A stretch of 64,000 nucleotides of DNA. Origin: Octopus vulgaris. Its lineage: Eukaryota. Shown here one piece after another: positions 4,435 to 58,937 of this stretch. The notes under the pieces were generated by a model. That model made no database searches. It was not told the DNA's origin and saw nothing but the letters and a program-made list of their open reading frames with translations. Both the position numbers and the translations under genes were made by a program. Every line of letters starts with the position of its first letter. Position 1 is the stretch's first letter. Location of the stretch: assembly GCA_951406725.2 (NCBI GenBank), contig OX597821.1, forward strand, positions 107,942,001 to 108,006,000, in the 5' to 3' direction.

Positions 4435-4592
4435 CTACTATAGGCACAAGGTCTGAAATTTCGGAAGAAGGGGATAGACGATTACACCGGCTCCAGTGTA
4501 TTTCTAGTACTTTATTTATCAACACCGAAAGGATGAAAGGCGAAGTTGACTTCGGCGGAATTTGAACTCAGAACATAAAGGCGGACGAAATA
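4435..4592 (-). mobile_element. SINE family B fragment (tRNA-derived, Deu/Nin-like core)
   Basis: CCGAAAGGATGAAAGGCGAAGTTGACTTCGGCGGAATTTGAACTCAGAAC is the reverse complement of the B-box plus GCCTTTCATCCTTTCGG core. Confidence 0.8.
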
Positions 4593-4893
4593 CATCATTG
4601 CCTGGAATTGCAAGATTTCACCCCAGCAGAGTTCTCAACGGGGTTCTTGAAACATGATCAGTAAACAAGTGTCACCTTAGTCTGCGGGGTGTTGGGAGCT
4701 GACGCCTTCCATAATACTCGGCAGAATAAGCTGAGAGTTTTCATCAAATAATAACAGCAGCAACGACGAAGTTATAATAATGAGGATGGCGACGACGACG
4801 ACGATGACGCCAATATTAGCAAAAACAACAACAATAATAATAAATAAATAATTCCATACATAGATAACTAGACAGACAGACAGACAGACAGAC

Positions 4894-5670: not shown

Positions 5671-6010
5671 CATTATTGTTATTATTATTATTCCTATTAG
5701 TATTATTATTAAGACAGTGCTCGACTGGTACTTATTTTATCAATCCCGAAGTATGAAAAGCAAAGTCAACCTCGGCGGAATTTGAACTCAGAACGTAAAG
5801 ACAAAGAAAATACCGCTAAGCAAGGAACACTGGGATCGATGTAATCGATTTCTCCTTCCTTCGAAGTTACTGTCTTGTGCCAAACTTTGAAACCCATGGT
5901 TATTATTATTGTTGTTGTGGTTATTTTCATATTTATTAGCATAGTTACAATCATTGTGCTATTGCCCCCGCAGTTTGGCAGAAGACGTATCTGGGGAGGG
6001 GTGTTAGGAA

Positions 6011-6061: not shown

Positions 6062-6225
6062 GGTACAGGAGTGGCTGTGTGATAAGTATCTTGCTTCCCA
6101 ACCACATGGTTTCGGGCTCAGTCCCACTATGTGGCACCTTGGGCAAGTGTCTTCTACTATAGCCTCAGGCCGACCAAAATCTTGTGAGTGGATTTGGTAG
6201 ACGGAAACTGAAAGATGCCCGCCGT
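6062..6225 (+). mobile_element. SINE family A head
   Basis: Matches 685-826. Confidence 0.85.
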
Positions 6226-6428
6226 ATATATATATATATCAGTAGATGAATGAATTATCCTAGTATGGATAATTCTGTTAATCGATACCTGGGTAGCAAA
6301 TTCACTTCAGTAAAACACGGTTGAAGTTACATGCCAAGGGCTGAACCCCGTGTTCGTGTGTGGAAATTTGTTTGTTTTTTTATATGAATAAATGAAAAGA
6401 ATGGAGTCGAACGAAGATTTTATCAAAA

Positions 6429-6527
6429 TTCCTTTACTTTCGACATATGTTTCGAAGACTGCATATTCTTAATTCCGAAGGAATGAAGGTTGCATTATGC
6501 CGTCTTCTCATCAGAAAATACAAGGAA
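6429..6527 (-). ncRNA. Type I hammerhead ribozyme (minus-strand copy)
   Basis: TCATCAG at 6508-6514. Same fold as the plus copy, with a U-G pair closing stem I. Confidence 0.8.
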
Positions 6528-7091
6528 CCTCTATCAGCCTCAAGACGAACAAAAGCTTCTTACCGTCTGCCTACATGGTTTCCACAGTGATAATAAATAT
6601 TTATTTAAAATAATCCGTTATAGGCAATGACGTCAAAATTGGATGGAAGGAGGAAGTTATAAAAAAATAGGAAGGGGACAGTGTGTATGCTGTATGTATG
6701 GGGATTGAAGGGTCTATGTTTTGTTAATGAGTTTGAGTGTTTGTGTGTGTATATAACTGCATCTGTGTCTATGTGTGTGTGTTTGCAAATGTATATGTGT
6801 GGGAGGGGGACAATTGTCAAATATATATAGTATTAATGTGAAAAATTTGTGTCTGTGTGTTTGATTGTGCGCATGATAGAGAGAGAGAGAGAGAGAGAGG
6901 GGGGGAGAGGTAGAGAGAAAGAGATAAACATACGCCAACTATATTTAATGTTTGATGCAACAGAACAGAGAGGAAGCATTTGTCTACGGTAGTGGTGTAG
7001 ACGGATTATTTTAAATAAATATTCACTATCACTGTGGAAACCATGTAGGCAGACGGTAAGAAGCTTTTGTTAGTCTTGAGGCTGATAGAGG

Positions 7092-7190
7092 TTCCTTGTA
7101 TTTCCTGATGAGAAGACGGCATAATGCAACCTTCATTCCTTCGGAACTAAGAATATGCAGTCTTCGAAACATATGTCGAAAGTAAAGGAA
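7092..7190 (+). ncRNA. Type I hammerhead ribozyme with intact core
   Basis: Stem I TTCCTT-gta-TTTC / GAAA-gta-AAGGAA. CTGATGA at 7105-7111. Stem II GAAGAC.GCATA / TATGC.GTCTTC. GAAA at 7166-7169. Palindromic stem III ACATATGT. GTC triplet at 7175-7177. Confidence 0.85.
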
Positions 7191-7225
7191 TTTTGATAAA
7201 ATCTTCGTTCGACTCCATTCTTTTC

Positions 7226-7280
<55 letters not shown>

Positions 7281-8869: not shown

Positions 8870-9205
8870 GACCTGGAAAGGATGAATGGCAAAGTCGACC
8901 TCGGCGGAATTTGAACTCAGAACATACGGACAAACGAAATACTGCTAAGCATTTCGCCCGGCTAACGTTTCTTATTTCTTTATTGCCAACAAGGGGCTAA
9001 ACGTAGAAGGGACAAACAAGGACAGACAAACGGATTTAGTCGATTACACCAACCCCAGTGCGTAACCGGTACTTAATTCTTCGATCCCGAAAGGATGAAA
9101 GGCAAAGTCGACCTCGGCGGAATTTGAACTCAGAACGTAACAGCAGACGAAATATCTCAAAGCATTTCGCCCGGCGTGCTAACGTTTCTGCCAGCTTTCT
9201 GCCTT
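8870..9205 (-). mobile_element. SINE family B tandem copy, opposite orientation
   Basis: GGCAAAGTCGACCTCGGCGGAATTTGAACTCAGAAC occurs twice. Confidence 0.85.
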
Positions 9206-9975: not shown

Positions 9976-10354
9976 AAACATACACTCATACATACATACA
10001 TACATACATACATACATACATACATACATACATACATACATACATACACACACACACATACACACACACATACATACACACACACATACATACATACACA
10101 CATACATACATACATATACATACATACATACATATACATACATACATACACACACATACACACACACACAGTATTGAAGCTTGAGAACAATCAGATACAT
10201 TTGCAACACATCTGTTGAAAATATTATTGTTCACACACATACATATACATATATACATACAGACAGACAGACAGATAGACACACACACACACACATGATC
10301 CAGCATGGCCAAAACCTCAAGGCTGAAACATATAAAAGAATAACAGAATATAAA

Positions 10355-10712
10355 TGTGTGCAAAGTACAAGAAATATTAATGCAGTATATGGGGATTGGA
10401 CAATAAGCGTAAGGCAGTGTCAATGGTGGTTCCAGAAATCCCGAGCCATAAACTACAGCCTAGAAGACGAGCCTCATCCTGAAAGATCTGTAGAACTCGA
10501 CAAGGACATCCAGAAAACCCTGGTGGAACAAAATATCGTAACTGTTGAGGAACTAGCAGAGAAGCTTGGATTTGGTCATTCAACCATTCATTGACACCTG
10601 TGTGCTATCGGAAAAGTCAGCAAATTGGGTCAATGGGTTCCTCACGAACTTTCCGAGTCTAATTGCATGCAGAGAGTGAATGTATGCTTTTCTTTGCTGT
10701 CATATCTCACCA
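10355..10712 (+). pseudogene. Mariner transposase N-terminal relic (HTH to WVPHEL)
   Basis: Translation INAVYGD..QWWFQK..LEDEP..TVEELAEKLG..STIH*HLCAIGKVSKLGQWVPHELS, with an in-frame stop. Confidence 0.9.
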
Positions 10713-15777: not shown

Positions 15778-15825
<48 letters not shown>

Positions 15826-16824
15826 GCGTTGCTCTCAAGCAACTCTGCCGTCCTGGGTCGACCTTAAGTGACTTCAACACAACCAAAGCATTCTATAGGG
15901 GTTTAGTGGAGGGGAGGTACGACGACGAGCTCGGGGCGAACCTGGACGTCGACGAGGAGTACCTGACCCGCCTGTTCAGGACGACTTTCGGGCCAGGGCC
16001 CATGGACAACTTCCAGAGATCCCTGGCCTGGCAGTGCTACCGAGAAGCGCTACCCGTTCGGGATAAGCTCTACAGACACGGCTCGAGAAACACGGGGCCG
16101 ACCTGCCCGAGATGCGGTCAGAGCGACGAAACCGTTCTGCACGCACTCGTTCAGTGTCCAACAATTTCCGACCTGTGGGCTTATGTCGAACAACTGCTGT
16201 CACGTGTGGGACGAGTCGGTTTATCAGCTGAGTCTATCGTCAATATTGTCACGCCTCCTTCCTTCAAACGGGAAGGAAGAGCTATTTTCATCATCCTTGT
16301 GGCTATGGCGAAAGAATGTATCTGGTGGACGCGTCTGAAAGGATTGGAGACAAACACTTTCCTCTCTGGTCAATCTCTCATCAACTTCTTCAAGTACCAC
16401 TTGAAAAGGAAAGTGAGAGTAGAGAGGCAAGTTTTGTCTAGCGAATGTTTTAAAAAAAGATGGGTGAATGTAGCAAGAATGGCACGTATGAATGACGAAG
16501 CCACCTTGAGCATAGTCCTATGAACCCAGAAATCGAAAACAGAGAGTTGCTTATTTGCAAAAAAAAAAAAAAAAAAAAAAAGAAATATAAAATGTGACTT
16601 CATTGACCGAGGTTACCGTGGTCTTTTCCGTAGGCTTTTCTTTCCACGGGTAAACCTCACCTGTCCTCCCCTTTACACTTCATATTGACATTTCTGTGAT
16701 AACGATCCCTATTGATCAATTTTTTTTTTTTTTTTTTTTTTTTTCTTCCTCTCCCCCTTTTTTTAACCCCCCTTTTTTTGTCCTCCTTCTCTCCTTTTAC
16801 GATCCCTTTTGATCGAAACTCCCC

Positions 16825-39502: not shown

Positions 39503-40333
39503 CGACAGGGTACCCAAAAGAAACCGGAATTTAACAATATTATTTTATTCACTTAGCTTCACATGTTTCCTCTTTGATCGCCGTCGTAGTATTCTTTGCT
39601 TGAAGGAATGGATTGTTCCAGATGCATTTTCCACTGTTGGAAGCAGTGCTGGACATTTTGTGAAGTGATGCCTTCTAACGCTTCGGTCTTTTTTTTCTTC
39701 ACTTCTTCCACATCTGAAAATTCTGTTGCACCAGCTTTTGTCACCAGTGACGAAAAAAGGCTCAAATCAACATCCAGTTTCAGTTCACGACACACATTCA
39801 GTCTTGACTGCTTTTGATCTTTCGGGAATAAGCGAGGCACAAATTTTGTTGCAACTCTTTTCATTCGCAATTCGGCGCTCAAAATTCGTTGGCAGGAGCT
39901 CCAAGACATACCAGTCATATCAACAAATTCATCAATTGTTCCTCCAAGGTTAGTTCATGAATTTTCGTGATGCTTTCATTCGTTCAGGGGCTCGACGTTC
40001 GCCCTGAACGAAGCTGGTTTTCAAACGACAACTGACCATTGATAAGCGTGAAAACCGCTCGTGAACTTGTGTTTTGCTCACGGCAGTGTCCTTTTACCAT
40101 GTTAGAAGCATGACAGCTGTTTCGGCTATCTTTTTACCCAGCAGAAGACAAAATTTAACGGAAGCACGCTGTACCTTCGGTTCAGCCATCGCAAAAATCG
40201 ACAAACAGGGGAGAAGCACTGCAAAGCAAAGACGCACCACGTTGCATTACGACCCCACCCGACGCCGCCGATCGGCAGACTGATGCCTGAGGGTTGTATA
40301 CAGTGGCTTCTAACGTTTCCGGTTACCCCCTCG
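39503..40333 (-). mobile_element. Internally deleted mariner with degenerate TIRs and TA flanks
   Basis: TA|CGACAGGGTACCC..CCGGAA and TTCCGGTTACCCCCTCG|TA. Peptides SWSSCQRILSAELRMKRVATKFVPRL and CFQQWK..EYYDGD; the catalytic middle is missing. Confidence 0.85.
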
Positions 40334-43733: not shown

Positions 43734-44710
43734 GTGCAGATTTGTATGTTTTATGTATGTATTCCCTTGCATATAGCTACATATCTAGACATGCTCATAT
43801 AAATTTAAGTGATAAACTTCAGGAAAGTTTTACAGATTTTTATTGTTCCAGTGATGGATTGGATCTGTAGTCTTCGAATTAGCTTTCTCCTTTCTGGTTT
43901 TGAGAAGCCTAATCTCTCAAGATTGGTATTTAGGCAGTGCGTTACATATCCCAGAGCCCCGATAATTACAGGTATTAAACCTGAACTTGTAATCTGGATA
44001 GAGTAACTGCAGATTTCTCAACAGTTAAGCGTAGGTATTCTCTTTTTCACTGATCTTCAGCTTTATGTTAACACCCACTGAGCAGCTAATTTCCACAACT
44101 GTGCACAGTTTCTCTTCTTATCTCTAATCATTATATCAGGCCTGTTGTGATTACATTTCATTGAGGTCTTCACTGCTACATTCCACCAGTACTCCTTCTT
44201 ATTATGAATGGCTGTGGCTTCAATCGTATTTCTTTGTCCTCGGGATTATCCTTCCGACGGATTTCATTATAGAATGTCCTAGCTACAACATCATGCCTCA
44301 TCGGTAGATAATACTGTGATGACATTTTCAGACAACTGCTTATGATGCGGGCGATATCTTCAGTGTGAACTCCACAACGTAAGCATCGGTTGTCATATTT
44401 TACAGCTTTTCCTGCGTTTCTATCTCTTTTGTGCATCAGGTACTTGGTTAATATTTCCTGTTCCTGGAATGGAAATATATACCCTTCAAAGTGGAAGATA
44501 GTAATCCGGCTTGTGCTCCATAATAAACTGCTTTGATGATCGATGTTACTATCATCACGGAGCTTTCTACTAATATATCCACGCATAGTCTTTTGCTCAT
44601 ATAGGCTCATCCGTCCATCTGATGATACGTTGCAGTAGAGTCGTGCGACTTCTTTGGGCAGAGCGTTGCTCAAGGAGCTGCCTTCCAAGCTTTATGATCT
44701 CATAATGGAT
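43734..44710 (-). mobile_element. 5'-truncated R4/Dong-clade non-LTR retrotransposon (CCHC + restriction-like endonuclease)
   Basis: FEGYIF..QEQEI..CLRCGVHTEDIARIISSC..RHDVVA, then NHNRPDIMIRD..VVEISC..K..Y and IPVIIGALGYV. Frameshifted. (TACA)n at both ends. Confidence 0.9.
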
Positions 44711-57630: not shown

Positions 57631-58937
57631 GTGGGTGCGGTGAATAAATTGTCGTCTAAAATATGCAAAAATGAAAATAATACTGACATCTAATTTTCAC
57701 AGATATATTTAACAAAGTTACATAAAAAATAAATATCTTGAAATACTAAAGGATAAATTTCTTCAATAAAATAACCACTGGCTTCAGCCACAGCCTCCAG
57801 ACGACTTCGGAATCTCCTGCAGCTCTTCAGGACAGCCTCCTTGTTTTAGTTGGTGAATGCTGCCATGATCTTTGACTTCAGTTCATCTTTGGTGTTACAA
57901 GGAGTTTTGTTGGTCTCTCGCTGAACTGCGCCTCATGCATAGCAATCAAGGAGGTTGCAGTCTGGTGAGTTAGGTGGCCAGATGTTAGTTGGTGATGTGG
58001 TCGCAGAAATTTTCTGACAGCCATGACTAGATTCTCCTGTTTGTGTGGCATGGTGCAGATTCCTATTGCCAGACATAGGGTCTTCCAGCAGCCACCTTCA
58101 TGGCTCAGGGCAGCTCTACCTCCTCCAGGCACTTTATGTAGGCCACCGTGTTGAGTCTGAGGTCGTGTGGGAAAAGGAATGGAGGCATAAGATCGCCATC
58201 ACTAGTGATCACTCCAAACACCATGAAGTTGATTGGATGTTTGATTTTTATCACTGACGTTACATGTTTTGGGGACACGGCAGGCCAAAGTTTGTTCTGT
58301 GTGTTCATCTGATCCCGGCAGAAATTTTTCTCGTCTGATAAAAATCAAATCATGTTCAGTTGGAGGGGGTGATTGAGTTTGTTCAAATGCTTCGTAGCGC
58401 GGTCTTTCCTCTTTTCCTTTATGAGCTTAGGATAGAAATTGGCCACTTCTCATTTTGTATGAGAAATACCGAATGAATTCATGCACTACCTGCCTGGTAA
58501 GAAACTCAGGCACTTCCATATCCCTGTCAATGGACCTGATTAACTTAGAGTGATTGTTGTCACTCATGTCCTGGCTCTCACCAACAAATTCAGGAATTAT
58601 TTTCTCATCAGAATAACGAGAGTGTGTTTTCCGAGCTGCCGTACCTTCGTAATTACTATTAGAGTCATCCAAATCTTTCCGAATCCTCTGCACTATCCTC
58701 AGATTGAGACCCAAACACACTGACATGATCGTATCGGAGCTTGCGCCTCGAATACCAAGCAGTACAGCATGTCGTTTCCATATTTCTGGAAGAGTAAATT
58801 GCGTCATGGTGCTGTTTTCCTCACAGATGGTGCCCAACTAACCCTAAAATACTTTTAGGACACAATCCAAATCAAGCAATGCGCATGCGCGACATAAAAA
58901 ATACTAAAAGTGGCGACAATTTACCAGTCGAAGCCTG
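57631..58937 (-). mobile_element. Near-full-length maT/DD37D-type Tc1/mariner relic
   Basis: TIR core TAAATTGTCG / CGACAATTTA. Peptides FLSDEKNF, MVFGVITSDG, YVWQ*ESAPCHT and WPPNSPDCN.LD, with stops and frameshifts. Confidence 0.85.

Follow-up and report, generated by a model that had tools for sequence, protein, structure and literature searches.

Insertions of endonuclease-bearing (EN+) Penelope-like elements (PLEs), as described for Penelope/Poseidon, Neptune, Hydra and Naiad (Craig et al. 2021, PMC8557442), combine a copy truncated at its 5' end with a neighboring one that is inverted and likewise lacks its 5' part; an inverted truncated copy, a one-sided tail and a microsatellite target make up the standard PLE unit (PMC8557442, PMC8969392). 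The locus analyzed here, which lies in a 64-kb window (the whole stretch of Octopus vulgaris DNA that was examined), shares with these units the two truncated copies in opposite orientations, a putative tail at one end only and a (TA)n target that masks the TSD, as well as a hammerhead ribozyme in the pseudo-LTR (pLTR), which the same source describes for the canonical and Hydra clades. The tails described there are 30-40 nt long, compared to ~148 nt for the putative tail at this locus.

The Penelope elements of Adineta vaga, reported in 2013 (PMC3846280), display ~200-bp inverted pLTRs (181-218 bp) in a head-to-head arrangement, a palindrome at the inverted junction, a TATA motif plus TCACT, and a tail on one of the pLTRs, all of which have counterparts here, a putative one in the case of the tail; the 31-bp tail, the 8-10-bp TSDs and the ORF start within the pLTR that are described for the Adineta elements do not. 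The study of Poseidon from Anolis carolinensis (PAc, PMC11167929) provides the model of two internal starts of reverse transcription and of an AT-rich target both strands of which are cut and extended. In PAc, these starts are 30-40 nt apart, which is the length of the tail, and lie inside the ORF, whereas the ~148 nt at the present locus are inferred from genomic ends only. The PAc hammerhead cleaves only with protein and is dispensable for insertion in vitro (PMC11167929).

Metazoan PLE hammerheads (Cervera and De la Pena 2014, PMC4209133) are of type I, with a full core, the G10.1-C11.1 pair, a short palindromic helix III that requires a dimer, and a helix II that is longer than usual, and in all these respects they resemble the hammerheads of the locus. 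The differences are in the details: stem II in that description is a helix of 7-8 bp with a short loop, compared to 54 nt with a nested hairpin here; there is no bulged base between positions 9 and 10.1 here; and stem I of the locus features a 10-bp outer helix as well as a 3x3 internal loop. Opposite-strand hammerhead pairs located 100-700 bp apart were already reported in Schistosoma in the same work. Animal non-LTR retrozymes (PMC7229834; bioRxiv 10.64898/2026.07.22.740005) are non-coding and contain a type I hammerhead with a 2-bp helix III and a tetraloop, as is the case here, but are described as head-to-tail tandem units that yield circular RNAs, whereas the locus is inverted, with one sense copy per strand. 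The inverted arrangement itself is already known, and it is the long stem II and the probable ~148-nt tail that are mildly new.

Architecture and boundaries of the locus

The locus contains two inverted arms of 231 nt each, the left one at 6388-6618 (minus strand) and the right one at 7001-7231 (plus strand), with 226 of the 231 positions identical and 382 nt between them; the original prediction, made from the letters of this DNA, of near-identical ~230-bp inverted arms around a ~380-bp spacer is borne out. The five mismatched positions are 7024/6595, 7026/6593, 7072/6547, 7104/6515 and 7147/6472. The left arm appears to be the pLTR part of a longer 5'-truncated copy; the "spacer" (6619-7000, minus strand) appears to be the upstream body of that copy, likely its 3' UTR; and the right arm can be interpreted as an inverted, shorter 5'-truncated copy that stops at an inner 3' end and has no tail.

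A (TA)n run, the likely insertion target, is located at the outer left end (6225-6239), and another such run at the outer right end (7229-7267). The insertion flanks thus lie inside (TA)n, which renders a TSD unreadable. Between the left run and the left arm lies an extension of ~148 nt (6240-6387, minus strand) that is read as a long one-sided PLE tail. Accordingly, the limits of 6388 and 7231 that had been proposed for the entire unit hold for the arms, but the full unit probably extends beyond the left-arm edge and spans 6240-7231. A perfect 9-bp hairpin (6252-6275), in a region for which no family variant is listed, lies near the outer end of the tail and may serve as a signal for starts at the outer site.

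The head-to-head junction is marked by a 6-bp hairpin with a 9-nt loop, GTCTAC/GTAGAC (6982-7002, plus strand), the presence of which had been noted previously; 2.8% of the positions in the window have a hairpin of this type ending at most 3 nt away. This hairpin is possibly the scar of a snap-back or of a template switch. The short inverted copy starts (at 7001, equivalent to 6618) at the final base of a TATAA motif, and the tetranucleotide ACGG is present both inside the hairpin of the junction (6986-6989) and where the arm begins (7001-7004), a possible microhomology.

The TATAA motif (6622) belongs to a set of promoter-like motifs on the minus strand at 6586-6642 that also includes CCAAT (6642), TGACGTCA (6635) and an Inr-like TCACT (6590). 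The right arm has no CCAAT, TGACGTCA or TATAA. The array CCAAT-TGACGTCA-TATAA-TCACT is promoter-like by consensus matches only.

The ATG codons within the arm open frames of only 8-25 codons, with no continuing ORF after any ATG of the arm or tail, and a Pfam search with two minus-strand frames of the spacer yielded no match. No RT or GIY-YIG sequence was found in the unit or linked to it, so that assignment to the PLEs rests on the architecture and the ribozyme; the missing ORF is as expected for a 5'-truncated copy.

The hammerhead ribozymes

Each arm contains, near the 3' end of the pLTR, a type I hammerhead, and the two point outward. The left copy occupies 6425-6531 (minus strand), with the core starting from 6514 and C17 at 6442; the right copy occupies 7088-7194 (plus strand), with the core starting from 7105, C17 at 7177 and the predicted cut after C7177. 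The order of elements in the arm is stem I, CUGAUGA, GAAGAC...GUCUUC (54 nt), GAAA, C AUAU G, UC and stem I', with CUGANGA, GAAA and UH present together with three helices. Stem I has, besides an outer helix of 10 bp, a 3x3 internal loop (GUA/GUA), and the stem II domain of the right copy (7112-7165, plus strand), 54 nt in length, includes a nested hairpin. With regard to a loop 1-loop 2 contact, stem I has an internal loop, whereas stem II lacks a terminal loop in its usual position and runs on over 54 nt. Helix III is in both copies formed around the palindrome ACAUAUGU (7169-7176, plus strand, in the right copy), with 2 bp in the monomer and 8 bp in the dimer, i.e., it is of the dimer type, a feature that the original prediction did not mention.

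A strict hammerhead descriptor matches exactly twice in the 64-kb window, compared to one match overall in 200 dinucleotide shuffles; a loose core match at 44060 fails this descriptor. Thus, the CUGAUGA/GAAA core and the GUC site proposed for each arm are confirmed as sequence motifs, with the predicted plus-strand cut after 7177, and the GTA/GTA internal loop in stem I and the ~54-nt stem II domain with its nested hairpin were both found. The description of the two hammerheads as intact holds for both cores, but the left copy carries a change at 6515 that weakens stem I and favors a misfold; the right-arm letter at this position is found in at least 99.8% of the aligned family depth. An Rfam search of the window produced no match at the gathering score, with no hammerhead model among the 12 weak matches around the locus. 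Pattern scans detected no hammerhead-pattern match in viral and metagenome contigs and no tail-motif match in metagenome, viral and prokaryote contigs.

A dispersed high-copy family

Among the 24 public sequencing runs listed, which come from 10 studies and none of which is recorded as RNA, 20 contain part of this stretch. The contigs of four runs, X1, X2, X9 and X8 (organism labels A, B, A and D, respectively), were aligned to positions 6245-7004, which include one arm only, at 85% likeness; 1502 contigs of X1, 1008 of X2, 220 of X9 and 466 of X8 align. The origin of the 220 X9 contigs from RNA is only a guess, and these contigs are excluded as evidence of expression. The arms and the hammerheads belong to a high-copy dispersed family, with thousands of contigs, (TA)n at the ends and depth that falls toward the 5' side. 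The largest class of X1 contigs (842 of 1502) has 90-95% likeness to the locus copy, and 112 contigs have at least 99%. Summed depth, which should not be read as copy number and is influenced by the 85% cut-off, declines in X1 from 597,000 (6271-6296) to 316,000 (6427-6452), 31,000 (6609-6634) and 1,700 (6817-6842), as 5' truncation predicts.

The same slope, from a very deep 3' end to a sparsely covered 5' side, could also result from a non-autonomous derivative, retrozyme-like or SINE-like, that consists of the pLTR only, never had an ORF and is mobilized by a PLE in trans. Such an origin, which would agree with the fact that no ORF was reached and with the proposal (bioRxiv 10.64898/2026.07.22.740005) that animal retrozymes derive from pLTRs, seems to us improbable: there is no head-to-tail repeat at the locus and no go-back joint among the three joints listed, and 5' truncation by itself accounts for the slope. 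The lack of a head-to-tail copy in the window and of a go-back joint among the three listed also led us to reject a tandem retrozyme.

Aligned depth is found in all four runs at 6619-6738 and 6791-6868, and the boundary 6618/6619 is bridged with at least 31 letters on each side by at least four contigs, all among the 32 listed, with a further 3174 outside the listing, so that the "spacer" is at least partly element body on the minus strand. Positions 6739-6764 and 6869-7004 have no contig cover owing to the repeat filter, and nothing follows from this gap. Family contigs thus link the spacer to the left arm, and other inverted joints occur elsewhere in the family: two of the three joints listed connect opposite strands, namely 6536/6705 (one contig, depth 55) and 6300/6550 (one contig, depth 6).

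The junction of the locus itself, 7000/7001, is not covered by contigs in the aligned runs, which is one reason to consider that the inversion is a chimera of the assembly or of a library, and structures of this kind are known to trouble assemblies (PMC8557442). Against such an artifact, which we consider extremely unlikely, the arms differ at five sites, stop at different family termini and are flanked left and right by (TA)n; a contig of X1 is identical to the locus over 6567-6653, left-arm letters included; and the family has other inverted joints. A MITE was rejected because the arms stop at different family termini and the inverted joints vary among copies.

Depth in the aligned region is greatest over the left flank, 6247-6387, which is high-copy in all four runs. 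Loose ends enter (TA)n at two places, before 6247 (19 contigs of X1, 10 of X2 and 8 of X8) and before 6396, at the arm end (9 contigs of X1 and 8 of X2), which suggests that copies of the family terminate at two alternative 3' ends ~148 nt apart. It should be considered, however, whether 6240-6387 is a separate high-copy repeat, in which case the true unit would be 6388-7231, with no long tail. All four runs show a strong dip in depth at 6349-6400 (in X2, 6,300 at 6349-6374 compared to a peak of 240,000), and none of the 32 contigs listed bridges 6388 with 31 letters (two do so at 6380), such that the link between the ~148-nt one-sided extension, itself far longer than the published 30-40 nt, and the arm is below the 31-letter rule. 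Nevertheless, at least four contigs, all among the 32 listed and from three runs, cross 6388 and reach 16-25 letters into the arm (depths include 1801 and 538 in X2), two X9 loose ends run on into the extension, and variant loose ends at 6326-6344 point to diverged subfamilies, which accounts for some of the dip. Moreover, (TA)n is absent at 6388 in the window but present at both outer ends. Taken together, these observations make a separate repeat unlikely. If the 148-nt tail holds, it would extend the distance in the PLE model of two reverse transcription starts by a factor of four and provide a clean test of that model at the genome level.

An apparent skip of 6558-6663 in X9 (with ends CT..AA) was considered as an intron and rejected; it is more readily accounted for by a diverged subfamily, with loose ends behind 6558 and before 6663. 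This subfamily also has no donor-like GTAAG at 7056/6563, and the intron idea was therefore dropped.

Comparison with published PLE consensus sequences places the family outside the published cephalopod consensi of the Naiad clade: three motifs of the locus have no matches in the supplement of PMC8557442, i.e., the element is not among its Naiad, Chlamys or Hydra consensi, and a full hammerhead is present here. By eye, the 3' ends of Naiad_Obim, Naiad_Ovul and Naiad_Omin (PMC8557442) differ from that of the locus element. The 3' ends of Naiad_Obim and Naiad_Ovul (File S5 of PMC8557442) show, also by eye, GAAA before CTGATGA, ~25 nt apart, i.e., in the order of a permuted core, and a word similar to CCCAGGT-TCGA in common with the locus tail.

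Apparent conservation of the long stem II

Among the 40 family variants listed, nine fall inside the hammerhead, and none of these alters the core or disrupts predicted pairing, an outcome that was obtained in 0.13% of trials under random placement with an equal share of transitions; the stem II pairing in this test is the structure predicted from the locus copy, and the variants counted are the rows listed, such that any of the 18 rows outside the listing might still disrupt it. In addition, loose ends behind 6459 (18, 17 and 9 contigs, with agreement of 0.71-0.77) reveal a further subfamily, in which the interior of stem II differs but, judged by eye, a nested hairpin of ~7 bp is still formed in the same place. 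These results are moderate evidence that the stem II arm is under selection in the family, and the long stem II apparently has been kept.

In File S2 of PMC8557442, the stem II domains of animal elements reach up to ~24 nt, and that of PLE-X1_sMoe from Selaginella is ~53 nt; thus, compared with the animal rows of this file, a long arm is unusual, yet it has a precedent. The Selaginella stem II (9 bp, a 35-nt loop and 9 bp), marked there as non-canonical, is similar in length to the one described here, but PLE-X1_sMoe is a plant element, endonuclease-less and rDNA-targeted, and its sequence is unrelated to the locus by eye. The core search in the same work allowed 7-17 nt between the core halves, and eight "half-core" cases at 35-50 nt were flagged. 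The available text of PMC3088659 contains no long stem II case, and a literature search, the scope of which did not extend to Repbase and most subscription papers, found no such hammerhead or long tail.

Given that long-armed hammerheads escape both Rfam and the 7-17-nt core search, some PLE lineages described as hammerhead-less or "half-core" may hide full ones, and abundant animal hammerheads are missed by standard descriptors. We tentatively propose, as a rather doubtful generalization, an abundant animal PLE family with a selected, folded 54-nt accessory domain in stem II and reverse transcription starts ~150 nt apart. The 54-nt domain is perhaps a docking site for the protein of the element or a substitute for the loop 1-loop 2 contact. 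The family provides a natural variant of the PLE hammerhead with a long stem II arm that can be deleted, and as such is relevant to the role of the PLE ribozyme.

Predicted ribozyme activity and the read-through duplex

The form of hammerhead with a short palindromic helix III needs a dimer (PMC4209133, PMC7229834). In agreement with this, the lowest-energy predicted fold of a homodimer of the right copy is a double hammerhead, with -59.2 kcal/mol compared to -51.8 kcal/mol for two monomers; the left copy, by contrast, is not predicted to form a double hammerhead as a homodimer. The predicted probability of the monomer hammerhead fold is 0.008-0.02 when the right copy is folded by itself and 3e-5 to 8e-5 within the whole right arm; for the left copy, it is 6e-6 to 3e-5. 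The monomers are thus predicted to be nearly inactive, and the claim that a transcript from either strand carries an active-sense ribozyme appears overstated, considering the dimer-type helix III and the monomer probabilities of at most 0.02 (right) and ~1e-5 (left).

In either read-through RNA, the predicted duplex of the arms is dominant (-462 and -431 kcal/mol), and the hammerhead fold would cost more than 115 kcal/mol. Hence the suggestion that the duplex blocks the ribozyme is supported by folding, but a two-way switch is not: with the arms in head-to-head orientation, transcription of either strand yields the antisense arm before the sense ribozyme, and the block would be constitutive. 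By the folding model, the only RNA to escape the duplex would be one started at the internal promoter-like motifs, and it would carry the weaker left copy. The notion of a host or element RNA switch, in which the 230-bp read-through duplex would keep the ribozyme silent and be passed on to ADAR or Dicer, draws on the predicted energies and on the size of the block. We regard it as highly improbable, given that an antisense arm always precedes the sense ribozyme and leaves no second state, the left copy is decayed at 6515, any fold-back PLE stub yields such a duplex as a by-product, and a non-exhaustive look identified no host exon nearby.

Origin and age of the insertion

The architecture and the family data support the original assignment to a Penelope-type inverted pLTR insertion, although the RT/GIY-YIG gene was not reached. 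With a probability of about 0.85, in our estimate, the locus is the dead product of one event in which an EN+ PLE inserted into a (TA)n run, and the arms and hammerheads come from one dispersed high-copy repeat. Observed directly are the arms, the cores, the flanking (TA)n runs, two 3' ends in the family, and the presence of arm, spacer and tail in many copies; the course of priming and joining, as well as the kind of enzyme involved, is inferred. In this course, the endonuclease of the element would cleave both strands of the AT-rich target, and the resulting ends would each prime reverse transcription of the element RNA at one of two internal starts ~148 nt apart. The first cDNA, from the outer start at 6240, would have extended for ~760 nt, and the second, from the inner start at 7231 (equivalent to 6388), for 231 nt, after which the truncated cDNA ends would have been fused at 7000/7001 in head-to-head orientation, with a small fold-back hairpin as the scar. 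Alternatively, the head-to-head joint could arise via self-priming on an antisense template, as discussed for Adineta (PMC3846280).

The hammerhead would then be the normal pLTR ribozyme of the element, which in the tandem RNA of the parent could cleave as a dimer via the helix III palindrome, or with the help of protein. At this locus, with one sense copy per strand that is weak as a monomer and buried in the read-through duplex, the ribozyme is expected to be silent. Taken by itself, the locus is of little importance; in all likelihood, it is just one of many dead fold-back stubs.

The insertion had been called young, and this holds only roughly: the arms differ at five sites, i.e., 5/231, or ~1.1% per arm, and the largest family class is only 90-95% like the locus copy. 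If the calibration given in PMC13282606 (JC 0.09 for 25 My) applies, the insertion is roughly 3 My old, with a wide error.

Other features of the window

The window is rich in microsatellites and repeats, with a GC content of ~35%, and its short dispersed repeats are octopus-like in appearance. An open frame at 15825-16520 (plus strand) contains a zf-RVT domain (E 2e-8) and represents the 3' end of a LINE, which we take to be L1/Tx1-like. A frame at 44179-44691 (minus strand) matches zf-RVT weakly (E 0.014), contains a CCHC...RHD-like stretch and may be the end of an R2/R4-type LINE. A mariner-type remnant with HTH_48 (E 4e-7) is located at 10346-10591 (plus strand), and the frames at 39562-39954 and 58430-58837 (both minus strand) are transposase-like by eye, with no Pfam match. 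Finally, a dispersed SINE-like family is represented in both orientations at 4529-4602, 5749-5822, 8878-8951 and 9091-9164, and forms a second inverted pair, 8086-8229/8973-9116, of 144 nt with 84% complementarity.
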